A DNA stretch of 12,499 bases, taken from assembly GCA_029858565.1 (NCBI GenBank), contig JAOUEV010000082.1, positions 1 through 12,499 on the forward strand, written 5' to 3'. Each line of letters begins with the position of its first letter. Position 1 is the first letter of the stretch. The position numbers and the translations under genes were made by a program. Below the pieces are notes generated by a model. The model saw only the letters and a program-made list of their open reading frames with translations, was not told where the DNA came from and did not search any database. This document shows, piece after piece, positions 1,966-12,499 of the stretch. The stretch is from Nitrospirota bacterium. GTDB lineage: Bacteria; Nitrospirota; UBA9217.

Positions 1966-4215
1966 ATGGACCGTCTCACTTATAAGACCCTTCTCTACGG
2001 CGCAGCAGGCGGCCTTGGCGGTATTGCCGCCTGGGCGCCGGTCCTGGCCCTGTCCCAGGGCATGCGTACGGGACTCCTGACCGAGATCAGCCTCGGAGCC
2101 CTGACCGGCATGTTCATCGGCGGATTCATCTGGAGCCACGAGGCGGTCATGTCCAGGCAATTCCTGACTGCGCTCAAGCGGGCGGCCTTCGGCGCCCTTG
2201 CCGGAATCGTTGGCGGAGCGCTCGGCGCAGGCATGGGGACAACGGCATTCTCCGCGCTCGGACGCTATGTGGCGGACCTCAGCGGTTTCCGCGCTTCCCT
2301 GGGCATTGCCCTGTCCGTGGCCCTGGGCTGGGCGGTCCTCGGAGCAGCCATCGGCATGAGCGGCGGGGTAATGATCCGGTCCCGCGAGCGCGCAGGCTAC
2401 GGCCTTGCCGGCGGTCTTGTCGGCGGATTCTTCGGCGGCATCCTGTTCAACAGTCTTTCGGCGACCAATGTCTGGTCGGCCCTGGCCGGACTTTCGCTTC
2501 TGGGTCTTGCGATCGGCGCATTCATCAGCCTTGTGGAAGAGGCTTTTGTGTCGGCAAAGCTGAAAGTGATCAAAGGCCGGCACCTGAACAGGGAATTCCC
2601 GCTTCTGAAGGAAATGAACGTGGTGGGCCGCGACGACCGGGCTGATGTGTGCTTGTCCGGCGCCGAAGGCGTGCTGCTTGAGCATGCGTCCATTCTGCGC
2701 GACAACGGGCGTTTCACGATCGAGACCAATGAAACAGGCAAGCCTGTGTATGTGAATGAAGCCATGACCACAAAGAAACGTCTTGATGACGGCGATGTGA
2801 TCCGCGTGGGAAGCATCCTGCTGCTGTTCACCGCGATCAGGAAGACCGCGGCGCTCGCGGCGATACTTATGCTCGTCGGCTTGTCCCTGGCGTTGCCGGG
2901 GACCGTTCTTTCCGCCGACCCTGCTTCGCTCCAGATCACCCAGTTCGATCTGAGCGGCTTTCCGGTGGTGAAGGCCTATGTATCGGCGCTTGACAAGGAA
3001 GGAAAACCGGTGCACGGCCTGACCAGGGAGAGCATGACGCTCAAGGAGAACGGCAAGACCGTTGTGATCGACTTGCTGCAAATGAACGGGACCAACGGTG
3101 AAGCCGAACCCCTGAGCCTCGGCATTGTTGTCGACCAAAGCGAATCCATGACCGGCGACAAGCTTTTGCATGCCAAGGAAGCGGTCATTCGTTTCCTTGG
3201 GCTCATGGAAAAGGATGACAAGGCATCGCTCGTCCTGTTCAGCGACAAGGTGACGACCCTCTCCGGCCTGAGCAATGATCAGGAAGCGCTTGTAAAGAAC
3301 GTGCAGGCCATCGAAGCACAGGGCCACACCGCGCTCTACGACGCGGTCGCCGCGGGCGTTGCCTCGGTCCGGGGCACGACAGGCAGACGCGCTGTGATCG
3401 TGCTGACCGACGGCATTGCCAACCGCGGAGCGCTTGATATCGACCAGGCGATCGAAGCGGCTGTCGCGGAATACGTCTCGGTCTACGTGATCGGCCTGGG
3501 CAATGATGTGCGCACGGCGCGGCTGGAACGGATCGCGTCGGAGACCGGCGGTTCCTATTTCTTCACGCCGTCGTCTGAAGGCCTTTCCGCGATCTACGAG
3601 ACCATCAGCAAAAGGATCCACAACGAATATACGGCGACCTTCACCGCGGAAAAGCGCGGCGATTATCTCCGGAAGATCTCGCTGAGCCTCGCAGCCGGGC
3701 TGTCGGCTGAGCGCGCCTATTTCCAGCCTGAATCCTCGCTCTTCGGCGCCGGCGGCATGGCGCCGTCCCGGGCTTTCGCAGCGACCCTCGCGGCGCTCGT
3801 CTGCCTCCTTGCCCTCTCCCTGCGCAGGATCGAGCAACAGTACAAGACCGCCCATCTGACGCTGGTACGCGGAGCGGGAACGAAAACGAACATCCCTGTC
3901 GGAGCAACAGCGTCCATCGGCAGAGACGGACGCAGCACCCTCGGGCTGAAAGACAGCGGCATCGACCAGCAGCATGCCCGGGTCAAGAAAAGCGCCACGG
4001 GCTACGTCATCGAGGACAAGGGCTCGGCACAGGGAACCTATGTGAACAAGACCCGCGTCCTGGGAACAAAGACGCTCAAGGACGGCGATGTCATCACCAT
4101 GGGCAACGCCACCATCGTATTCAACGAAGGAACCACGAAGATCTGCGCGGAATGCGGAGAACCGGTTCGTATGGCCGCCAAGTTCTGCGCAAAGTGCGGA
4201 GCGAAAGCTGCGTAA
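1966..4215 (+). CDS. Multi-pass membrane protein: TM bundle - FHA - TM - vWA - TM - FHA - Zn ribbon (749 aa)
   Basis: ATG at 1966 after AAGGAGG. Gly/Ala-rich hydrophobic N-terminal helices, FHA-like VVGR...H...VYVN, hydrophobic helix, vWA MIDAS (DQSESM, GHT, VLTDG), second hydrophobic helix, FHA-like IGR...QHA...GTYVN, terminal CAECG...FCAKCG. Confidence 0.9.
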   Translation: MDRLTYKTLLYGAAGGLGGIAAWAPVLALSQGMRTGLLTEISLGALTGMFIGGFIWSHEAVMSRQFLTALKRAAFGALAGIVGGALGAGMGTTAFSALGRYVADLSGFRASLGIALSVALGWAVLGAAIGMSGGVMIRSRERAGYGLAGGLVGGFFGGILFNSLSATNVWSALAGLSLLGLAIGAFISLVEEAFVSAKLKVIKGRHLNREFPLLKEMNVVGRDDRADVCLSGAEGVLLEHASILRDNGRFTIETNETGKPVYVNEAMTTKKRLDDGDVIRVGSILLLFTAIRKTAALAAILMLVGLSLALPGTVLSADPASLQITQFDLSGFPVVKAYVSALDKEGKPVHGLTRESMTLKENGKTVVIDLLQMNGTNGEAEPLSLGIVVDQSESMTGDKLLHAKEAVIRFLGLMEKDDKASLVLFSDKVTTLSGLSNDQEALVKNVQAIEAQGHTALYDAVAAGVASVRGTTGRRAVIVLTDGIANRGALDIDQAIEAAVAEYVSVYVIGLGNDVRTARLERIASETGGSYFFTPSSEGLSAIYETISKRIHNEYTATFTAEKRGDYLRKISLSLAAGLSAERAYFQPESSLFGAGGMAPSRAFAATLAALVCLLALSLRRIEQQYKTAHLTLVRGAGTKTNIPVGATASIGRDGRSTLGLKDSGIDQQHARVKKSATGYVIEDKGSAQGTYVNKTRVLGTKTLKDGDVITMGNATIVFNEGTTKICAECGEPVRMAAKFCAKCGAKAA

Positions 4216-4223
4216 CTACAACC

Positions 4224-5408
4224 ATGACAAAACTTCTCAATAATAGATATGAAATACGCGGCATCCTCGGAAGGGGCGGCATGGGATGCGTGTACAAGGT
4301 CGCTGACCGAAAAGCGAAGGGCCGCATCCTTGCCGCAAAGGAACTGCGGTCCGACGGTCTGTCCCCGGCCAAGGCCCAGGAAGCCCTTGCCCAGTTCAGG
4401 ACCGAGGCGCGAATCCTGACCAGGCTCGACCACCCGAATCTGCCGAAGGTGCATGATTATTTCAGTGCGAACAACAGGCACTACATCATCATGGACCAGG
4501 TGAAGGGCGCGACCCTGGCATCGATCCTCAGCCGACGCCCCGGTCAGCCGGTGGACGAGCAGATTGCCCTGTCCTGGGCGCTCCAGATCTGCCGAGCCAT
4601 GCAGTTCCTGGCTGTGCAGAAGCCGCCGGTGGTGTTCCGGGATCTCAAACCCGGCAATATCATGATAGACAAGAACAACAAGGTAAAGCTCATCGACTTC
4701 GGCATCGCCCGGTTCTTCAAGGACGAAAAGGAAGGCGACACCTATGTGTACGGCACACCGGGATATGCCGCGCCCGAACAGTACGGCACGGGCCAGACAG
4801 ATATTCGCTCCGACATCTTCTCCCTCGGCGCAACGCTCCACCACTGCCTGACCTGCAGGGACCCGTCCCTCCATCCCCTGGATTTTCCCGACCCGCGCAA
4901 ACTGAATCCCGCGCTGAACAAGGGAACAGCGAAGATCGTGATGAAGGCGCTGGAACAGGACATGCCGCGGCGCTACCAGACCGCGCTGGACATGAAGCAG
5001 GCTGTTCAGTCCGTGCTGATGAACATCGAATCCCTTCCCAAAGGCGTGAACAGCGTGATCCATGCCCAGGCCGGAAAACCCATCACCATCCCCTGGTGGA
5101 AAAGGACCAGCTGGGTGCGCGTGCCCGTTGTGGCGCTCGGGTGCAACGGCACCACAGGAACGCTGTCATCGAGCGACCGCTGGCTCCATCCCAAACCCGG
5201 GGCCTTCAACCCCGGTGCGTCGCAGCTCCTGTTCCGCGTCGACGGCTCGAAGCTCAGGATGGGCAGGGAATACCGTCCGCGCATCACCGTGCACACCGAC
5301 GCGGGCATTCTCCGGCCGCAGCTCCTGATCAAACGGCCCTGGCCGTGGATGTTGATCGATGCGGGATTGATTGCGGCGGCTGTTGCGGGGATATTGATGA
5401 TGAGGTAA
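4224..5408 (+). CDS. Hanks-type Ser/Thr protein kinase with C-terminal membrane anchor (394 aa)
   Basis: Motifs LGRGGMG, AAKE, FRDLKPGN, LIDFG, GTPGYAAPE, SDIFSLG. Hydrophobic C-terminus. ATG at 4224 lies 8 nt after the preceding stop, which fits better than the ORF-track start at 4152. Confidence 0.95.
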   Translation: MTKLLNNRYEIRGILGRGGMGCVYKVADRKAKGRILAAKELRSDGLSPAKAQEALAQFRTEARILTRLDHPNLPKVHDYFSANNRHYIIMDQVKGATLASILSRRPGQPVDEQIALSWALQICRAMQFLAVQKPPVVFRDLKPGNIMIDKNNKVKLIDFGIARFFKDEKEGDTYVYGTPGYAAPEQYGTGQTDIRSDIFSLGATLHHCLTCRDPSLHPLDFPDPRKLNPALNKGTAKIVMKALEQDMPRRYQTALDMKQAVQSVLMNIESLPKGVNSVIHAQAGKPITIPWWKRTSWVRVPVVALGCNGTTGTLSSSDRWLHPKPGAFNPGASQLLFRVDGSKLRMGREYRPRITVHTDAGILRPQLLIKRPWPWMLIDAGLIAAAVAGILMMR

Positions 5409-5499
5409 GGGGGAGATTGTAGCTGCACTGATGATTACACCTACAAGTGTGCAATTGCAGTATGGCGAGCCAATTGTCAATTACAGATTGAAACATACA

Positions 5500-5558
5500 C
5501 ATGAACGCGCCGCTGACTCGCCGCTTTTGGCGAATCGATGTCGAGCGGCTGGTTGGTC
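5500..5558 (-). mobile_element. Integron attC site (59-base element), essentially intact
   Basis: Minus strand: GACCAAC(R'')-CAGCC-GCTCGAC(L'')-ATCGATTCGCCAAAAGCGGCGA-GTCAGC(L')-GGCGC-GTTCATG(R'). AAC/GTT triplets, 5-nt spacers, one extra C in L'' (extrahelical G on the bottom strand), terminal stem-loop, 2 nt after a stop codon. Confidence 0.9.
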
Positions 5559-5560
5559 TA

Positions 5561-7402
5561 TCATGAAGCGATTGATTTCAATTGCGTGTCAATAGAAGAT
5601 ATGAATTCTTCAAGTGATTTCAGAAGAACTTCAATTTCTGCCAATCTGAGAACGTGAAATTTGCCAGACTTTGTCCGGCCGTTTCGATGAACAAGGTCAT
5701 GTCGAATAGCAATGCCACGATGTATAAGCTCTATATCTTCTGGAAATTTAATTTGGAGCACATTGTCGTATAGATTCTCAACACGAGCTAAATTATGCCA
5801 AACAAGATCGAGAAGATACTCGCTTACTTTCTTGTTGATTTGGTTTTTCCAATCGAGGATGTCGGTGATGGCATACTTCCGTTCTTTAAATTCCGGGACA
5901 GTCTTCAATAGCCGTTCTATGAGTGCATCGCTGTTAGTTACTTTGTGGAAGAAAGCATCACATAAGTAAGTTTCCATAGCCGTTATTGCGGCCGCATATA
6001 TCATTCTGAGTAGAGGCTGCCTAAGCTGAGCACGGCTCGGTAATTTCTGTGATAGTAGACCGCGGATAATCGATACCTCTTTTGTAAAAGTCTTTAAGAA
6101 ATCAGAGTTAGCCTGAGCTGATTCATACAAAGCTTCGTACAATCGTCTTAGTCGATTTTCACTTTCGCATAATGGACAGCCAGATTGAAGAATTGTTCGA
6201 TTCTTTACTTGTGCGAGCCATTCATGCTCGGGATTAAAACTGCATCGCCACCAGATTTTTCGACCACTTGCACGAGTTACCTCATTCGGCGTCAGTGAAG
6301 CGTTCTTTGTCGGATGCCATTCTTTGGCAATTAAAGGATAGTGGAGAGCAAGGCTATTCTTTTCTGTTGCGGCACGTCCCGAACAATGAGGGCATGCCTT
6401 CATTTCGCCTCTGCTGTGCGTTCTTTGAGTTATCGTTGATTGCCACTCATAACTTGGGTCTTTTGAACAACGCCACCATACTCGTTTCGAGCTACCCGAT
6501 GTGAAGTCGGAAGGTTTAAGTTCGCCGTTCTTTGTCGGATGCCACTCTTTAGCAAGCTCAGGGAATTTATCGGCAAAACTAGGGCTTTTGCTACAGATTG
6601 GGCAGCCTCTCCCTTTTTTCCTGGTTCGCGGTGTTGCCGCCCATATATGGGATTTATTTTGAGGGCAAATCCACCAAACCTTACGAGAAGATCCGCCGGT
6701 AAGTTGTTCAGGCAGTAATGGAAAGTTCTTTGTTGTATGCCATTGAACAGCTATGTCGGGCATGGAAATTGGTAATGGCTTCTTATCTCGTGTAAGGCAC
6801 TTTGGACATCCGGATAAATCTTTTGCCCGTGTTACAATACGTGCTTGCCAACTGTGGCCTTCTTTGCATTGCCACCAAACTGCCTTGTTCATTCCACGTG
6901 AAACATCCGTTACTAAAAGAGGCAAATTCTTTTTAGGGTGCCACTCTGCTGCAAGTTCAGGATTGGTATATTTTAGTGAACTTTCGTTAAGACGGCATTT
7001 CGGACAAATAGAGGTATCTCTGGTTCGATGGGCAATAAGGGTGTTCCATTCATGTCCCGAACTGCATTTCCACCAAGCTCTCTTATTGCTAAACGGACCT
7101 ACCGCCTCTGGTCGCAGTGCACCGTTCTTTGTTGGATGCCATTCTGCCGCCACGCTAGGATACAACGTTGCCAACGAGCGTTCAGGCGAAATAAATCGAC
7201 CTGAGCAATAAGGACAGCCGCTCTTATTTATGGATCGATTTCTTATGCGTCCTTTCCATTTGTGGTTAGGATTATTTTTGCACTGCCACCAAACACGTCG
7301 ATTCGAATTGGCTAAAGCGTCTTCAAACCGGAAAACTCCATTTTCGGTTGAACACCATTCTTCTTTTAGTTCTGGATTCGTTACACTGAGAAGTATCTTC
7401 AT
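5561..7402 (-). CDS. Six tandem DUF4379-like zinc-ribbon repeats fused to a C-terminal HEPN domain (putative RNase)
   Basis: Six repeats of P-x-(L/I/V)-x2-(E/Q)W..KN..S..VWW.C...H.W......R.....CP.C. Helical C-terminus with AITAMETYL and RHDLVH (Rx4H HEPN motif, 5687-5704). Start is ATG 7402 or TTG 7420. Confidence 0.85.
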   Translation of the reverse strand: MKILLSVTNPELKEEWCSTENGVFRFEDALANSNRRVWWQCKNNPNHKWKGRIRNRSINKSGCPYCSGRFISPERSLATLYPSVAAEWHPTKNGALRPEAVGPFSNKRAWWKCSSGHEWNTLIAHRTRDTSICPKCRLNESSLKYTNPELAAEWHPKKNLPLLVTDVSRGMNKAVWWQCKEGHSWQARIVTRAKDLSGCPKCLTRDKKPLPISMPDIAVQWHTTKNFPLLPEQLTGGSSRKVWWICPQNKSHIWAATPRTRKKGRGCPICSKSPSFADKFPELAKEWHPTKNGELKPSDFTSGSSKRVWWRCSKDPSYEWQSTITQRTHSRGEMKACPHCSGRAATEKNSLALHYPLIAKEWHPTKNASLTPNEVTRASGRKIWWRCSFNPEHEWLAQVKNRTILQSGCPLCESENRLRRLYEALYESAQANSDFLKTFTKEVSIIRGLLSQKLPSRAQLRQPLLRMIYAAAITAMETYLCDAFFHKVTNSDALIERLLKTVPEFKERKYAITDILDWKNQINKKVSEYLLDLVWHNLARVENLYDNVLQIKFPEDIELIHRGIAIRHDLVHRNGRTKSGKFHVLRLAEIEVLLKSLEEFISSIDTQLKSIAS

Positions 7403-7420
7403 CTTATTACTCGCGCTCAA

Positions 7421-7639
7421 TTAGACTTTGTCAGTTTTACGAACGCCGCAAATAACGCACGTACCGACGCCACGAGAAAAATTGCCGTGTTCACCTTCAC
7501 AGAAACCGCGATGGCATTTATAGCAATAACGCGCCGTTTCCCGTCGTCGGCGAAAAACCTCAGTGCATATCCAGCAATCAGCCCATTTCCCAGCCTCTAT
7601 AAGTTCCTTAGCGCTTTTTATCGCCACCTTTTTTGCCAT
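7421..7639 (-). CDS. Small Cys-rich putative double zinc-finger protein (72 aa)
   Basis: ATG at 7639 with GGAGG RBS just after an attC remnant. Pattern CxxC-x13-CxxC-x4-CxxxH-x9-CxxC. Confidence 0.75.
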   Translation of the reverse strand: MAKKVAIKSAKELIEAGKWADCWICTEVFRRRRETARYCYKCHRGFCEGEHGNFSRGVGTCVICGVRKTDKV

Positions 7640-7651
7640 CTTTTCCCTCCG

Positions 7652-7683
7652 TACTAACACGGCGCTGTAGCGTCAGGTTGGAA
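7652..7683 (-). mobile_element. Internally deleted attC remnant (32 bp)
   Basis: Minus strand: TTCCAAC-CTGAC-GCTACAGC-GCCGT-GTTAGTA. Both R boxes and both 5-nt spacers are kept, the L boxes are fused and the central stem-loop is missing. Lies between a stop codon and the next RBS. Confidence 0.7.
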
Positions 7684-7697
7684 TCACATATTAATAA

Positions 7698-8900
7698 TCA
7701 CATATCATTAAGTTCGCATGACTCAGAAATTTCAGCGAGATATTCCGGCTTGACATATTTGATGATGGTCTTAATCTTTGGCAATTCTTCTTTGATTTTT
7801 GAAAAAGATATGAAGCGGCACATTTCAGATAGGGGCGGGCTCATTTTAGAAAACGTGGGGCGGTTAATTTCCGCCACCACTTTATCTCTGCGAGAGTCGG
7901 GCGCGACCAGATAGAGAGGGATATTAATATTCGGCTGCATTGCGATCAGGTCGGACATTCGCAATAAACCGGAATATATTGATGTCGTGCTTTCGATCTC
8001 GAAGGCCGCCATAATGGAATTTCCTCTGAGCCAAAGAACATCAATGTGTTCGATGGTCTTATTCGTCTGGCTGTCGAACTGGAGGGGAAGCTCCTGCTTT
8101 ATTCGAGGGATGTCAGAAAAAATCACACCGTCATGCTGTTTGTTTTTGTCGTTTCTTGCCGCCCAAATGTCAAAACCCATGTCCACACCGAGACGCAATA
8201 GGAGATATTGAATTTCAGTGTGTTCATTTGTTGAAATGACAGGTTCACGCGGCTCTTCTTTCTCGGTATAAACTTCTGCCTCAAGCATTTGTTCAGGCGT
8301 TGAAGGAATATCTTTCGAGTAGGTTTCCCACAATTTCCGAGCGTATGGTAAGAAGTCTCTGCCATCCCACTCAGACACGATTTTCTTCTGCATTGTGCTT
8401 ATTGGCGTTCCGGGGGCGGATTTCGAGGCAGCCTCAAGAACTCTTCGTCGAAAAATATTGATGCAGCTTGGTTTGTCGAGACTATTTTGATAATGGAACG
8501 CAATCTTCCACTTGTATGAATCGCCCAAGTCCACTTGATCAATGCGCTCAAGCTCATTCCTTTGAACGGCGTCAATCGTTTCTAGAATCTGAAGTTTGAC
8601 GTTTTCGAAAGCTTCTTTTTCGGACTCGCCATATTTGCGCATCCAACCGTAACTGTCAGAGTAAAACCGTCCACCGACATTTTCTCTTTCACCCTTATCA
8701 TCACGCGAATAGATGCCGAATTTGAAAGAAGACCCGCCCCAAATGGAGCCTAATTTTTCAAGTTTCGCCTCTATCCAGTAAGTGAACGTATCTTTCCTTC
8801 CACAATTTGTATATTCCGGAAGCGTCATTGATTTTATTTTATCGACAGGCCAAGCTCTTTTAAACTCCTGCCAGAGACCGTAATCATTGGTCATGCTCAT
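7698..8900 (-). CDS. Putative restriction-type nuclease: N-terminal domain like that of McrB-like AAA GTPases + C-terminal PD-(D/E)XK-like domain
   Basis: 400 aa with AAGGAG RBS. N-terminus WP..I..MTL.EYT....DTFTYWIE..LGSIWGGSSFKFGIY, acidic linker, then HTEIQYLL...IDVLW...AAFEIESTTSIYSGLLRMSDL. No Walker A motif. Confidence 0.7.
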   Translation of the reverse strand: MSMTNDYGLWQEFKRAWPVDKIKSMTLPEYTNCGRKDTFTYWIEAKLEKLGSIWGGSSFKFGIYSRDDKGERENVGGRFYSDSYGWMRKYGESEKEAFENVKLQILETIDAVQRNELERIDQVDLGDSYKWKIAFHYQNSLDKPSCINIFRRRVLEAASKSAPGTPISTMQKKIVSEWDGRDFLPYARKLWETYSKDIPSTPEQMLEAEVYTEKEEPREPVISTNEHTEIQYLLLRLGVDMGFDIWAARNDKNKQHDGVIFSDIPRIKQELPLQFDSQTNKTIEHIDVLWLRGNSIMAAFEIESTTSIYSGLLRMSDLIAMQPNINIPLYLVAPDSRRDKVVAEINRPTFSKMSPPLSEMCRFISFSKIKEELPKIKTIIKYVKPEYLAEISESCELNDM

Positions 8901-8946
8901 GGTACTTCTCCTTTATTTTGACGCTGATCTATGCCGCTTTTGTCCT

Positions 8947-9001
8947 GGACCACGCGCGCGTGAGGAACGCGATAGCGTTTCTCTCGAGGCGCAGGTTGGA
9001 T
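8947..9001 (-). mobile_element. attC site with damaged R' box (55 bp)
   Basis: Minus strand: ATCCAAC(perfect RYYYAAC)-CTGCG-CCTCGAG-AGAAACGCTATCGCGTTC-CTCACG-CGCGC-GTGGTCC. Extra C in L'' as in the intact site. R' reads GTG instead of GTT. Confidence 0.8.
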
Positions 9002-9138
9002 TCAGCATTTCGTGTTCGTTATATCTACCGGCAACTCTATTCCATAGAAATCCACTCTGAGTAAGACGACTCATCGGATCAAAGGCAATGTGACTCTTGG
9101 ATGTAGTATTTCATATCGATTGCGCATTATTGCTCTCA

Positions 9139-10077
9139 CTAAGAATGATCATTTATTATCAGGGGCTGGCCAAATAGATTTATGTAAAGTTGAATATTTA
9201 CTTCTGTAGACAGGCTTTTCATCTTGCTTAACAGGGAACGCTTTGTTTCTTTGGTTGTTGCGGTTGCATCAGGGATTACTCGGACTTGATCATAATTCGG
9301 CCCGATCAAATGCTCTCGTAAAGCAGGTTCGTCCCCTCCCAACGGAAATGTAACAAAAAAGGTGTTGATCGTGCTTTTCTTACGAAACGCTTCTACTTTC
9401 TTATCGGTGGGGTCAATTTCTTTGTTAAAGAAAAAATCCATATTATCATGATCTATATCCACATAGCCGCTATCATTAACACCTATAAAATATGATTGAT
9501 AGTCGCCCGGATTTCCGAAGTAATACTCTTCATGGTAATGAATGCGCCGGGCACCAAGATTCGCAGTTATATTTTCCGGGGTGTGCGGAAAATCGCCAAA
9601 GCGTGTCTTGCCAAGAATTATATTAAAGGCAAGTGGGACGGCTTTTTTAATATCTTCGGGAGCCGATTTATCACCAGTAAAAGCGTGTTCAAGGATTCTG
9701 AACGAAGGATTGAAATCTGCTTTGCGGGTAGTAACCCCATACGCAAGAACACGACCAGAGGTGTCAGCCAAAACTTGAAGATAAAAATACTGGTTTCCGA
9801 ATATATACTCTTTTATTTTTTTTGATTCGGCGACAGACGATGCGTTCTTGGCCAACGCTTTTCGTTCCTGCATTACCTGGGGATTTGTTTCTTTTGGGGC
9901 GTTCCACCCAAAATAATAAATCAAGTAGCCTGCAATCAAAGCTGCGATCACAGTCAAGACGACGTATCCGATAGGTTTCTCATGCCATCTGTTTTTAGCG
10001 GGATTCTGACTGACAGTGGAACCTTCTTTATCGGAAATAACGATTAATGTTCTTCTTGTTTTCTTTTTCTTCGGCAT
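9139..10077 (-). CDS. Membrane-anchored hypothetical protein, ETEC_3214-domain-like
   Basis: 312 aa with GGAG RBS. Basic N-terminus and one TM helix (YVVLTVIAALIAGYLIYYFGW). Motifs YLQV...AYGVTTR..FNP, LGKTRF and YHEEYYFGNPGDYQSY recalled from this family. Confidence 0.65.
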   Translation of the reverse strand: MPKKKKTRRTLIVISDKEGSTVSQNPAKNRWHEKPIGYVVLTVIAALIAGYLIYYFGWNAPKETNPQVMQERKALAKNASSVAESKKIKEYIFGNQYFYLQVLADTSGRVLAYGVTTRKADFNPSFRILEHAFTGDKSAPEDIKKAVPLAFNIILGKTRFGDFPHTPENITANLGARRIHYHEEYYFGNPGDYQSYFIGVNDSGYVDIDHDNMDFFFNKEIDPTDKKVEAFRKKSTINTFFVTFPLGGDEPALREHLIGPNYDQVRVIPDATATTKETKRSLLSKMKSLSTEVNIQLYINLFGQPLIINDHS

Positions 10078-10084
10078 TCTTTCT

Positions 10085-10164
10085 CCGTAATGTTGAGCCG
10101 TTTGACGCGCCGCTTTTGGCGCGTGCTGTCGCTTTGCCTCGCCAGAAGCCAGCTATCGTTACTT
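10085..10164 (-). mobile_element. Degenerate attC site
   Basis: Minus strand starts AAGTAAC, overlapping the stop codon. Contains hairpin ACGCGCC-AAAAGC-GGCGCGT with the same CGCCAAAAGCGGCG core as the intact attC. Ends CTCAAC-ATTAC, with ATT where GTT is expected. Confidence 0.6.
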
Positions 10165-11349
10165 TTTCGACATATTCTTCAGTATTTGGCTGACTATATT
10201 ATCTGGTAATGTTGGGCTCGAATCCCCTTTCAACAACCCTGTATCTGCACGACTAAATATCGACTGCAGAACGATATGTCTGTCAGCATCTGTAACACCT
10301 TTCTCATGCAGTAGAGATAGGTAAACGTGGGTCAGTTGGTGTCGTTCCTTAGCATCGCGCGAAAGATGAAACGCACTAGTCGAGAGCCTGGTAAACAGCC
10401 TAACAATGTACACGCCTATTGATGCGATCAGAGCCAACAAAATTGTCATCTTAAGGCTGTCTAAGCTTAAACCCTTGCTACCCATATATCCATTAGGAAG
10501 CTGGTATAGTATCGACATTAATAGCAGTATCAACAATCCAGCTCCAGTAATAGCCCAGGTTCTCCACATTTTTCCCTTGTCAAAGTACTCTTTCGCCATG
10601 TTACTCCAATATTGTGCCGGACCTTCCAACCGAAGCTTTTCGTGATAATTTCGTTCTAATTTGTCGAGGTTCTCCGACCTATCTTTAATTAATTTATCTA
10701 ATGCTTTCTGAGTTTCATTTTTCCAGTTAGTAAGATTCTCTTGAAATGATGCATAGGAGCCCCCGATGTCATCAGTGCGCTTGAGGTAGTCTGCGTGGAG
10801 AAGGTTTAATTCCTGTACGTAACGCGATCTAAGTTCTTCTAGCGCTTTATATTCATTTTTTTCGGCTGATACACCCGTAGATTTATCATCGCCCTTGTAA
10901 AGAAATGCCATCAAATATCCCTGAAACTTATTTTTATCTTGAATATTACCGATCCTATTCTCAAACAAGTATTCGCATGCAGCGTCTGCATGCTGTTGGC
11001 TTTTACCGTAAATCGTCTTTAGGAACTGTGCCGTTGGTGTTGCCGAGTAAACCGCAGGAAATGAGTTCTTTCGCGCATTATCTATTGCATGTTGAAGATC
11101 ATGCCGTGCCGATCCTGCATCACGATTCGGCTGCAGCGCCTGCGTTAGCTGGTTAACGATATTTTGAAAATGGTTTCGAATGCCGGCGATATTTCCACTA
11201 TTACAGGAACTCCAGAAGCTCAATTCATTTTTCATTACATCAATAAAATGCTCAAGGCTAACAAAATGCAGTTCTTCCTTGTCGGGGAAAATAGTGATTC
11301 TGACTTGTTGACTTTTAAAGTGCTCTTCGAGGTCCTTATCGATTTCCAT
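10159..11349 (-). CDS. DUF6161-like protein: helical/coiled-coil region, two TM helices, conserved C-terminal tail
   Basis: 396 aa with GAGGGGG RBS. LRLEGPAQYW, two hydrophobic helices, SAFHLSRDAKER...YLSLL...IVLQSIFSRADTGLLKGD, recalled as typical of DUF6161. Confidence 0.72.
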   Translation of the reverse strand: MEIDKDLEEHFKSQQVRITIFPDKEELHFVSLEHFIDVMKNELSFWSSCNSGNIAGIRNHFQNIVNQLTQALQPNRDAGSARHDLQHAIDNARKNSFPAVYSATPTAQFLKTIYGKSQQHADAACEYLFENRIGNIQDKNKFQGYLMAFLYKGDDKSTGVSAEKNEYKALEELRSRYVQELNLLHADYLKRTDDIGGSYASFQENLTNWKNETQKALDKLIKDRSENLDKLERNYHEKLRLEGPAQYWSNMAKEYFDKGKMWRTWAITGAGLLILLLMSILYQLPNGYMGSKGLSLDSLKMTILLALIASIGVYIVRLFTRLSTSAFHLSRDAKERHQLTHVYLSLLHEKGVTDADRHIVLQSIFSRADTGLLKGDSSPTLPDNIVSQILKNMSKK

Positions 11350-11388
11350 ATTACCCCCTCAGTCTCAACAATACGTGCCTTTGACGCA

Positions 11389-11407
11389 ATCTAACATGTA
11401 GTTATCA
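11389..11407 (-). mobile_element. Putative attI site (L box - 5 bp - R box)
   Basis: Minus strand TGATAAC-TACAT-GTTAGAT. The R box matches GTTRRRY exactly, with attI1-like spacing, about 40 nt upstream of the first cassette gene and in the same orientation as the attC sites. Confidence 0.62.
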
Positions 11408-11410
11408 CAT

Positions 11411-11488
11411 TTCCCTATATAAGCCATACGTGGCCAATATAAGGAATTTATGCCTTATATTGGGAAGCTGCGATATTCCCAATATAGG
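11411..11488. repeat. Four copies of a (TTC)CC(A/T)ATATA(A)G motif in direct and inverted orientation
   Basis: TTCCCTATATAAG 11411-11423. CCAATATAAGG 11434-11444 and CCTTATATTGG 11453-11463 form a perfect 11-bp IR with an 8-bp spacer. TATATTGGGAA 11456-11466 and TTCCCAATATA 11476-11486 form a perfect 11-bp IR with a 9-bp spacer. Confidence 0.85.
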
Positions 11489-11648
11489 ACCTTTCATACA
11501 ATCTTCTCACTCCTTGACAACCCGCGCCATCAACTCCCTGTCCCCGCGAATCAATCCACACTGCACACGCCACAGCTTTTGCACGGGGTCACACTTTGCG
11601 CCAACCGCCTTCTGTCATAGGTTTGGGTTGTATGATTCTCTGAAGCTC

Positions 11649-11676
11649 AGCATATTGATCATAAGCTGTTGGGCAA
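11649..11676 (-). promoter_or_regulatory. Possible sigma70 promoter directed towards the cassette array (Pc-like)
   Basis: Minus strand TTGCCC-16 nt-TATGCT. Weak match only. Confidence 0.22.
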
Positions 11677-11762
11677 GGGACACCTTTTTGCCAACCTACA
11701 AAATACGAACCGTAACATGCAATCCATGGTGCCATCTGCCGTATCATGATTTCAGGAAGAAA

Positions 11763-12275
11763 TCAGGGCAACAATTTCACCGCTTCAATCTTGGAGACAC
11801 GATCTGGAGCTTTTGGAGTTCGTGCAGGATAGCCGACTGGAACGATTGCAACAGGCCTTAGATTATCGGGCAAGTCCAGAATGCCCATTATACTTTCCTC
11901 TTTAAACGCGCCGACCCAGCAGGTCCCCAGGCCGAGATCGTGGGCTGCAAGAAGCAGGTTCTGAATGCTCGCAGCGGTATCTTGGATGCAGTAGAGATGC
12001 TTTCCCCTGTCTCCGTAACGCGAGGCGCTGTGGTGGTCAACGCATGCGACAACCACAAGTGGCGCATGCGCGACGAAACTGGCAAGGTTCTGCTTGAGTT
12101 CCGCCTGTGCGAGCTTCTTTCGAATATCTTTATTGAAGACGAAATAGAATTTTCTGCTCTGGAGGTTTCCGGCGCTTGGCGCCCAGCGGAGTGCTTCAAT
12201 AAGGATATCAATCGCACTCTCAGGTATTTCCTGGTCCGTGAAATCTCGCACGCTCCGCCTATTTTTAATGATATC
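11763..12275 (-). CDS. Nitroreductase family protein (start uncertain)
   Basis: IIDIIKNRRSVRDF (the RRS lies upstream of the GTG called at 12251), WAPSAGNLQ, QDTAASIQNLLLAAHDLGLGTCWVGAF, PVAIVPVGYP. Confidence 0.88.
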   Translation of the reverse strand, partial: DIIKNRRSVRDFTDQEIPESAIDILIEALRWAPSAGNLQSRKFYFVFNKDIRKKLAQAELKQNLASFVAHAPLVVVACVDHHSASRYGDRGKHLYCIQDTAASIQNLLLAAHDLGLGTCWVGAFKEESIMGILDLPDNLRPVAIVPVGYPARTPKAPDRVSKIEAVKLLP

Positions 12276-12364
12276 AATTATCCTAGAGTTTCGAGCGAGC
12301 TGACCCGCTCGTCGCGATTTTTACGACGATTTCAGCATTGCCCTATTGATCTTTCACATAGCAT

Positions 12365-12499
12365 CTACGCGGCTTTTGGCAGTTTCCGCGTCGATGCGGC
12401 TGTTTCCGGCTCTTTCGGCGGCCCGAATTTCCGGGACTTCCGGTCCCACCACGCTCTGATCGGGAAGTGACCGAAAATCCTGACCAGACCCGACCGCAC
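12365..12499 (-). CDS. 3' end of an unidentified gene running off the window
   Basis: Open frame from the window edge, VRSGLVRIFGHFPIRAWWDRKSRKFGPPKEPETAASTRKLPKAA*, with host-like GC3-rich codons and TAG at 12365-12367. Confidence 0.5.
   Translation of the reverse strand: MRSGLVRIFGHFPIRAWWDRKSRKFGPPKEPETAASTRKLPKAA

Follow-up and report, generated by a model that had tools for sequence, protein, structure and literature searches.

A probable integron-type cassette module without its own integrase, framed by two recurrent boundary elements, in an uncultured Nitrospirota genome

The stretch of DNA analysed here (the window) spans the full 12,499 nt of contig C60, from a 3.9-Mb draft genome of an uncultured Nitrospirota bacterium (G000; 144 contigs, overall GC content 0.570). 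Between a Ser/Thr kinase gene and a nitroreductase-family gene it holds a GC-poor island of ~6.3 kb on the minus strand (5437-11764), which we regard with reasonable confidence as an integron-type cassette module that lacks an integrase of its own and was most likely filled by an integron integrase (IntI) encoded elsewhere. Read along the minus strand, a non-coding platform of ~370 nt (a left boundary element L, a spacer, four palindromes at a promoter-like site and a GTTAGAT core) comes first, followed by four cassette units with five genes (AbiZ-like; ETEC_3214; PD-T4-1/nuclease-like; and zinc-ribbon together with zinc-finger-HEPN), and the array ends in the sole intact attC, the G|TT of which is fused to a right boundary element R.

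The attC sites, the cargo and the integrases

The GC content is 0.40-0.47 over 5401-11400 (and low from ~5430 to 11800), against 0.55-0.69 in the left flank. The preliminary description of this locus, made from the sequence alone, had reported five co-oriented, AT-richer genes; all five were recovered as open reading frames (ORFs) on the minus strand (Table 1), and the extent it gave, 5500-11488, had to be widened to 5437-11764.

We searched for attC sites with a covariance model (R1), the 17 seeds of which were taken from other contigs in the genome and none from the window. Its structure (R-box, L-box and central stem) was written by hand, RNAalifold by itself recovering the central stem only; 76.6% of the cells were paired, versus 31-44% with slid partners, a value matched by 0 of 500 shuffles. 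Judged on the independent genome G031, where it found 12 co-oriented sites of the same family at E<0.01 (14 at E<=1) adjoining intI, R1 is a specific model. The window was searched with the filters off, covering 25,000 positions and giving 10 matches at E<=10. For comparison we used contigs of the source sample (X1), of a further sample (X2), of a soil sample (X3) and of a root sample (X4); the comparison was one of contigs, in which rare variants are dropped, and the X2-X4 contigs do not cover window positions 9000-11250.

The attC that closes the last cassette (5500-5558) was matched at 42.8 bits (E 1.5e-10 in the window and 4.7e-8 genome-wide), which falls within the range of R1 matches across the genome, the seeds themselves scoring 45.8-73 bits. 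Its bottom strand folds at -13.9 kcal/mol with the AAC and GTT ends paired (z -2.2; 5 of 200 shuffles as good), and it is the only one of the four sites that combines an imperfect palindrome, AAC/GTT ends, paired L boxes with unpaired bases and a foldable bottom strand. It falls into one attC family with the sites that lie next to the genome's intI genes.

The next-best matches (E 0.022, 0.17 and 0.64) fill all three remaining gene-to-gene gaps, on the cassette strand, and the best background match in the window reached 8.7 bits (E 1.8). The three gaps and the terminal attC stretch together make up ~416 nt of the 25,000 positions searched. Because the weak matches sit exactly in the gaps behind the genes and on the cassette strand, the earlier reading of one intact and three decayed attC sites was right, and of the two sites at which it had counted on a covariance match, 5500-5558 gave a strong one and 8947-9001 one at E 0.64 only. 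The latter folds at -16.3 kcal/mol (z -3.9; 0 of 200 shuffles as good), the hairpin at 10105-10124 is identical over 22 of 22 nt to the attC of contig C67 (BLAST), and the remnant at 7652-7683 recurs beside the same gene in a contig of X2. These three sites have lost the GTT box or the stems, and their cassettes are therefore now fixed.

Table 1. Features of the island and its flanks, in window coordinates
Feature	Position	Strand	Details
Ser/Thr kinase, last gene of VWA/FHA/kinase operon (host flank)	4152..5408	+	Pfam
R element, 70 nt	5437..5506	-	Starts at GTT of terminal attC, ends 28 nt from kinase stop codon
Intact attC, closes last cassette	5500..5558	-	R'' ..CCAAC, R' GTTCATG; R1 match over full length
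Zinc-finger-HEPN protein, 619 aa	5561..7420	-	Six treble-clef zinc-finger repeats (DUF4379) and C-terminal HEPN-like domain
Small cysteine-rich, zinc-ribbon-like protein	7421..7660	-	79 aa from GTG start
Remnant attC, 32 nt	7652..7683	-	End boxes ..CCAAC / GTTAGTA present, middle gone; R1 12.2 bits, E 0.17, 30 model positions deleted
PD-T4-1/nuclease-like protein, 400 aa	7698..8900	-	PADLOC PD-T4-1 E 1.3e-20 (residues 11-157); REase_II E 5.2e-16 (residues 225-354)
Decayed attC	8947..9001	-	Hairpin and R'' ..CCAAC present, R' GTG instead of GTT; R1 10.2 bits, E 0.64
ETEC_3214-domain protein, 312 aa	9139..10077	-	NCBIfam NF043066, 110.9 bits vs cut-off 35
Decayed attC	10078..10158	-	Central hairpin 10105-10124 intact, no GTT box; R1 local match 15.1 bits, E 0.022
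AbiZ-like / DUF6161 protein, 396 aa	10159..11349	-	Pfam DUF6161 E 3.1e-41; PADLOC AbiZ E 6.2e-28
GTTAGAT core, junction of platform and first cassette	11389..11395	-	Divergence of X3 and X4 contigs; four sister platforms
Four 11-nt palindrome half-sites (CCTTATATTGG)	11414..11489		Two exact and inverted, two with 2 mismatches
Platform spacer with GC-richer patch	11490..11687	-	No R1 match
L element, left boundary	11688..11764	-	Begins at nitroreductase stop codon; leave-one-out profile (8 other copies) E 1.7e-10
Nitroreductase-family gene, accessory flank	11763..12251	-	Pfam

No integrase gene lies at the locus. Two intI genes score over the TIGR02249 cut-off of 265 and are both found on other contigs (C137:1629-2552 with 381 bits and C128:1626-2561 with 355 bits), none of 14 control genomes having a match over this cut-off. 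Their frames, of 464 and 477 aa, are intact and contain the two integrase domains (SAM-like and catalytic), and attC-like sites of one recognisable family were found beside both intI genes and on more than 20 other contigs. An IntI encoded elsewhere in the genome had been offered beforehand as one option, and a nitroreductase gene, and not intI, had been noted next to the array; both points hold. A tblastn search with the two IntI proteins gave a best E of 0.69 in the 12.5-kb window, which thus has no intI remnant, and found none either in the 4.5-kb tail of contig C89, where the conserved downstream neighbour lies; an intI gene adjacent to attI and array, as in a complete integron, is not present at the locus. 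As a side observation, the IntI frames (C137:1164-2558 and C128:1620-3053) extend ~155 residues past the N-terminal end of the 315-position TIGR02249 model. Counting this extension, the two proteins share 55% identity along their whole length, and the intI frames of relatives measure 478-493 aa.

The preliminary description had called the cargo defence-like, and this was borne out by PADLOC and Pfam matches (AbiZ, PD-T4-1 and REase_II). The first gene product matched DUF6161 with 141.6 bits (cut-off 27), and its similarity to AbiZ (PADLOC PDLC02354) spans profile positions 152-394 of 398 and thereby most of the model. For the 400-aa protein a match to PD-T4-1 (PADLOC PDLC04021) over the whole protein was not obtained, as only profile positions 34-168 of 383 were covered, the C-terminal half matching a type II restriction nuclease profile. 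The small cysteine-rich protein had no family match in any profile library scanned; its gene more likely starts at the ATG at 7639, behind a GGAGG, giving 72 aa. Since the stop of this gene abuts the start of the zinc-finger-HEPN gene, the two form one cassette. The 619-aa product of the latter matched Pfam DUF4379 in 6 stretches (E 2.5e-107) and endonuclease families of PHROGs (E 1e-20 to 1e-25), and its HEPN-like region is covered by phrog_29321 (E 6.4e-25), a family without assigned function. A tRNA scan of the window was empty and an Rfam search of it gave nothing relevant; a match to the plant microRNA MIR173 at 1855-1951 (30.5 bits vs a gathering score of 70) was dismissed as chance.

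Boundary elements and the platform

Both ends of the island consist of elements that occur elsewhere in the genome as well, detected with leave-one-out nhmmer profiles from which the window copy was excluded. For R, a profile of 10 other copies found the window copy at E 9.1e-15, and the alignment of 11 copies has a mean column identity of 78%. R follows an attC on C38, C143, C62, C19, C67, C83, C117, C40 and other contigs, with unrelated DNA thereafter each time, and an R1-detected attC ends exactly at the start of R in 6 of the 14 R matches of the genome. The L copy of the window is 85.5% identical over 69 nt to that of C36; contigs of X1 and X3 diverge from the window at 11759-11761, which is the edge of L, and in X3 this edge is joined to DNA other than the nitroreductase gene. 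We found eight L...R pairs in the genome (on C60, C62 (two), C38, C19, C18, C36 and C88), enclosing low-GC inserts of 1.4-6.8 kb with co-oriented ORFs and attC sites, and leaving two L copies without R and six R copies beside contig ends. On C18, C19, C117 and C121, R is followed by L within 10-12 nt, as if the units stood in tandem. Among 10 ORFs of other modules that were scanned were an AIPR abortive-infection protein, CreD and an IS200-like Y1 transposase, the remainder being unknown proteins.

RNAalifold on 31 copies of R gave -0.15 kcal/mol and no covarying pairs. R as a folded RNA or single-stranded DNA element was accordingly rejected; as there is no conserved fold, R is more likely a protein-binding DNA site. 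A 19-codon ORF noticed by eye in some R copies was rejected, being interrupted by a stop in the window and in relatives. Two further observations concern the surroundings of R: directly after the copy on C143 (4310-4400) lie a tRNA-like T arm and acceptor end, and in the relative G014 (C5:301012-304074, at 1415-1563) two R copies stand as a facing inverted pair ~18 nt apart.

The platform ends at the GTTAGAT core. Contigs of X3 and X4, from two other studies (151 and 227 nt), match it up to 11402 and 11408, respectively, have a GTT core of their own a few bases past the match and then continue with sequence unlike the window, which in X3 resembles a ribosome-binding site with a start codon. 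Four sister platforms in the genome end in CTGGTT at 167-185 nt from the start of L, with a gene start 10-30 nt later, and the platforms of C19 and C62 are identical at 52 of 60 nt before G|TT and at 22 of 60 after it. Three results, those of the X3 and X4 contigs, of the sister platforms and of a short L-R unit in the relative G048 (see below), point to a real junction at the GTT core. As to the attI-like core that had been proposed here, a junction just past GTTAGAT is supported by the contigs of the two other samples, and no significant similarity of the platform to either real intI-attI region of the genome was found. Further copies of 11389-11488, for which a search had been suggested, are absent; the stretch is unique in the genome. 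Scans of metagenomes for the palindrome platform gave no match to an exact 30-mer, and the 3 loci returned by a gapped motif were set aside as unrelated hairpins, without similarity to the island and without L or R. A general resemblance of the L-platforms to the intI-attI regions of C137 and C128, first suggested by an apparent common stretch of 20 nt, was also rejected, only 2 of 16 comparisons by local alignment being unusual (1 of 200 and 3 of 200 shuffles).

The half-site CCTTATATTGG has 7 matches in the window, of which 4 fall within 76 nt, the expectation for the whole window being 2.3. A promoter-like site lies at 11510-11481 (minus strand), with the palindromes over it and just downstream, and from its sequence the four-palindrome stretch looks like an operator array. 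The cassettes might be transcribed from the platform. Scans for promoters and terminators found sites no more numerous than in shuffled sequence. Between intI and the first cassette of C128 (3430-3900) we observed a consensus sigma-70-like promoter, a 124-aa ORF and three 18-nt palindromes before the GTT core, which parallel the four palindromes of the window platform and differ from them in sequence. In the spacer, a second X1 contig (660 nt, depth 3.5) is ~90% identical to the window over 11487-11602 and then diverges; this patch may be another decayed recombination site, missed by R1. Past the patch the same contig continues with a GTTAGCC-type box.

Strain-specific cargo and occurrence in relatives

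The left flank of the island is conserved. Orthologues of the kinase were found in 22 of 30 relatives at E<=1e-30 (57-77% identity within the family), and at the loci of 11 relatives (7 with >=6 kb of sequence downstream) tblastn recovered the flanking operon but did not find any of the five island proteins, nor the nitroreductase, in the region that follows the kinase orthologue. The next conserved gene after the kinase in G012, G005 and G014 is the orthologue of C89:105610-106914. Among 40 genomes of the family, the AbiZ-like protein was found in none and the 400-aa protein in one, as a partial match. The content beside the kinase is thus variable, as the preliminary description had suggested should be checked, and the cargo is strain-specific. 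The C89 tail that follows (106915-108568) has a GC content of 0.42-0.57 and small ORFs lying back to back in the manner of a toxin-antitoxin pair; by its low GC and small ORFs, the variable region next to the kinase is larger than C60 shows.

On the other side, the nitroreductase gene is not the housekeeping neighbour that it had been taken for: of 40 family genomes 18 carry it, in the relatives examined it is absent from this locus, and its best matches are in other genera. A repeat of ~8 copies starts ~20-30 nt past its start codon (near 12272-12283), with a depth in the source sample of 78 vs ~10 elsewhere. The window end (12272-12499) is formed by this repeat, which is at least 125 nt long and 98-100% identical to the ends of C22, C104, C26, C107, C113 and C89; it is probably an insertion sequence, and the cause of the assembly break.

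Among the family's other genomes R turned up in 28 of 36, and among genomes from other families in the phylum in 0 of 24; L is far less common, being present in 5 of 40 family genomes. At 19 R loci from relatives, an R1 attC ends on R in 5 cases (four at E<1e-5, one at E 0.064), and several further R loci of relatives have attC-like hairpins of other types, as judged by eye. The relative G048, a genome lacking intI, has one L and one R at a distance of 255 nt, start to start, with no ORF between them and no R1 match at E<=5 with the filters off; this single case looks like an unoccupied unit.

The site occupied on C62 can be compared across relatives. In G061, G014 and G017 a gap of 13-23 nt separates the two genes that flank it, and L and R are both missing there. 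The other genomes carry inserts, of 2.7 kb in G000, of 3.8 kb in G044 (with R and a weak attC on the same side), of 1.2 kb in G012 (with a weak R) and of 1.1 kb in G003 and 0.4 kb in G001 (both without R), and the content is different in every genome. As the site is empty in some relatives and differs in content in the others, the units are true insertions, with varied cargo at one site across genera. The idea of R as a pre-existing landing pad was rejected, the empty relatives having no R or L here, and that of R as the right flank of a classical attI likewise, since both R and L are missing from the complete G031 integron. Within C62:124400-131000 (~4260-4317 and 5155-5243) the last 60-90 nt of the flanking gene are duplicated inside the insert, on the outer side of L. 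A copy of this gene end beside L was also seen in G044, and such copies are expected from two successive target-duplicating site-specific insertions.

Origin of the module and relation to known integrons

We propose that the cassettes were inserted at a platform ending in the GTT core by integrases encoded elsewhere, which could be those of the two intI arrays of the genome, as these use the same attC family. The module would by now be largely frozen by the decay of three attC sites, so that the terminal attC only, and perhaps the platform core, would still be recombinable.

A number of observations weigh against this account. The seeds of R1 are all local to the genome, so that the model tests a local attC family and not attC in general, and even so only 5500-5558 is significant by itself, the other three matches being individually not significant. 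Under the rule of IntegronFinder for a CALIN (attC sites grouped together, with no integron integrase), which takes at least 2 attC sites no more than 4 kb apart, the locus has one site at E 1.5e-10 and three at E 0.022-0.64 with a family-specific model. It is therefore a borderline CALIN, or formally a SALIN (a single attC site without integrase) with three remnants, and would be reported only at a one-site threshold. The score of the window platform against the intI-attI regions of C137 and C128 was reached by 137 of 200 and 67 of 200 shuffles, respectively. The complete G031 integron gave no match to L or R at E<=10, intI is missing at E<=1e-40 from three genomes that each carry 12-14 copies of R, and another L...R pair of G048, of 5.4 kb, has no R1 match. 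In X2 and X4 the 400-aa, small and HEPN genes are found in company, with the remnant attC among them, at 90-96% identity (~99% in short X3 contigs). Because these genes recur together, they move as one block instead of as free cassettes, in keeping with the decayed state of the site that separates them; no excision products or joints were seen in the contigs of the samples, from which rare variants are dropped. As to the cargo, HEPN_RiboL-PSP matched the 619-aa protein with 27.8 bits, just short of the Pfam gathering cut-off of 28.4, and the anti-phage role of the island, likely as it seems, is read from profile similarity.

A more far-reaching possibility, which we put forward tentatively, is that the L-platform and R make up a dispersed docking unit without integrase, an orphan attI with both its flanks, that would capture cassettes between the GTT core and R and would sit at many chromosomal sites in this uncultured Nitrospirota family, the integrases being supplied from elsewhere. 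It fits because of the empty 255-nt L-R unit, the varied cargo at one site and the platform joined to different DNA elsewhere.

The main rival, compatible with the cassette-module account and in our view somewhat unlikely, is that the L...R unit is itself mobile, moved by a recombinase or transposase recognising L and R, with the cassettes as passengers or later entrants. The outer edges of L and R are sharp, with unrelated DNA beyond them in every copy; the L edge in X3 is joined to DNA other than the nitroreductase gene; and the R-(10 to 12 nt)-L junctions of C18, C19, C117 and C121 are what tandem insertion would leave. At the C62 site, empty in G061, G014 and G017, the inserts of G000, G044 and G012 differ and have R on the same side. 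R is moreover present in genomes without intI, and G048 has an L...R pair without detectable attC. However, the 10 ORFs scanned in other modules include no recombinase or transposase candidate for such a move, L and R do not form an inverted-repeat pair, no target duplication was seen in the flanks inspected, and no more than 5 of 40 family genomes have L. Many copies of R are, furthermore, joined exactly to the G|TT of an attC, which is a prediction of IntI chemistry and not one made for transposon ends.

That the island is the remnant of a once complete integron, with intI deleted or replaced by the nitroreductase region, is improbable. Loss of intI is listed among the routes to CALINs by Cury et al. 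2016 (PMC4889954), and the multi-copy repeat beyond the nitroreductase gene, probably an insertion sequence, could have driven such a rearrangement. Yet neither the window (best tblastn E 0.69) nor the 4.5-kb C89 tail has an IntI-like coding remnant, the platform is unlike two real intI-attI regions, and the left edge is the same precise L as at eight or more other loci, which is not expected of independent deletions; the relic origin offered as one option in the preliminary description is hence poorly supported. The least probable reading, to which we give hardly any weight, is that of an ordinary horizontally acquired defence island with transcription terminators as hairpins, unrelated to integrons. 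It would account for three of the four sites not being significant with R1 and for scans that yield no more promoters or terminators than shuffles do, but not for the full-length attC match of 5500-5558 (E 1.5e-10, with AAC...GTT ends), nor for the hairpin at 10105-10124, identical at 22 of 22 nt to a genuine attC; the 8 terminator-like sites of the scan include, besides, none of the four.

For the cassette module without its own integrase, which we thus prefer, the wider meaning depends on the enzyme involved. Integrase-less attC clusters outnumber complete integrons in genome surveys. The integrase-less arrays of this genome are not random fragments: on the left they have in common a platform that runs to a GTT core, and on the right an element joined to the final attC, this second one occurring family-wide. 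If IntI acts on these units, several satellite capture sites would run from one or two integrase genes, and both the counts of cassette reservoirs and ideas on the origin of attI would change; if another enzyme moves them, they would be a new vehicle for integron cassettes. Should the docking-unit reading be true, the integrase-less attC clusters of the family would be organised satellite platforms with promoter and operators instead of debris, and R would mark array ends across the family. Either way, the cargo is a source of further candidate anti-phage genes, in a phylum that has been little sampled.

Integrase-less attC clusters and defence genes in cassettes are already known (PMC4889954; 10.1101/2024.07.02.601719). 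The new part of the analysis consists of the L and R boundaries, the repeated platform ending in GTT and the array-end element found across the family, of which the literature searched held no description. In the accounts cited here, CALINs and SALINs comprise attC clusters and single attC sites, respectively, without an integron integrase, and 83% of CALINs hold fewer than 6 attC sites (PMC4889954; PMC9024848; 10.1101/2022.09.11.507474). Cury et al. give intI elsewhere in the same genome for about half of the CALINs, and four possible routes to their origin (PMC4889954), to which Loot et al. add integration into secondary sites of the genome (10.1101/2022.09.11.507474). Like the CALINs and SALINs described there, the island is small, has co-oriented, promoterless ORFs with an attC behind each, no intI within 10 kb and intI elsewhere; unlike them, it has one significant attC and is part of a unit, present at least 8 times in the genome, whose L and R boundaries are conserved. 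Phage-defence genes have been reported as cassettes of mobile integrons (10.1101/2024.07.02.601719), and the cargo of the island resembles such cassettes in its abortive-infection and nuclease-type genes. It differs in that its role is proposed from PADLOC and Pfam similarity and in that the host is an uncultured sediment bacterium, in contrast to a plasmid-borne class 1 integron.

Closer at hand, the sedentary chromosomal integron of G031, a genome of the same bacterial family (intI and ~12-14 cassettes), shares with the island the attC family and low-GC cassettes in a chromosome of higher GC; unlike the island, in which three of four attC sites are decayed, it has intI, lacks L and R, and has attC sites that are nearly all intact. 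In class 1 integrons, the 3'-conserved segment is a conserved sequence that comes after the last attC of arrays with different cassettes. R likewise follows the last attC, and it differs from this segment as a 70-nt non-coding element that is present at many sites, also in genomes without intI.

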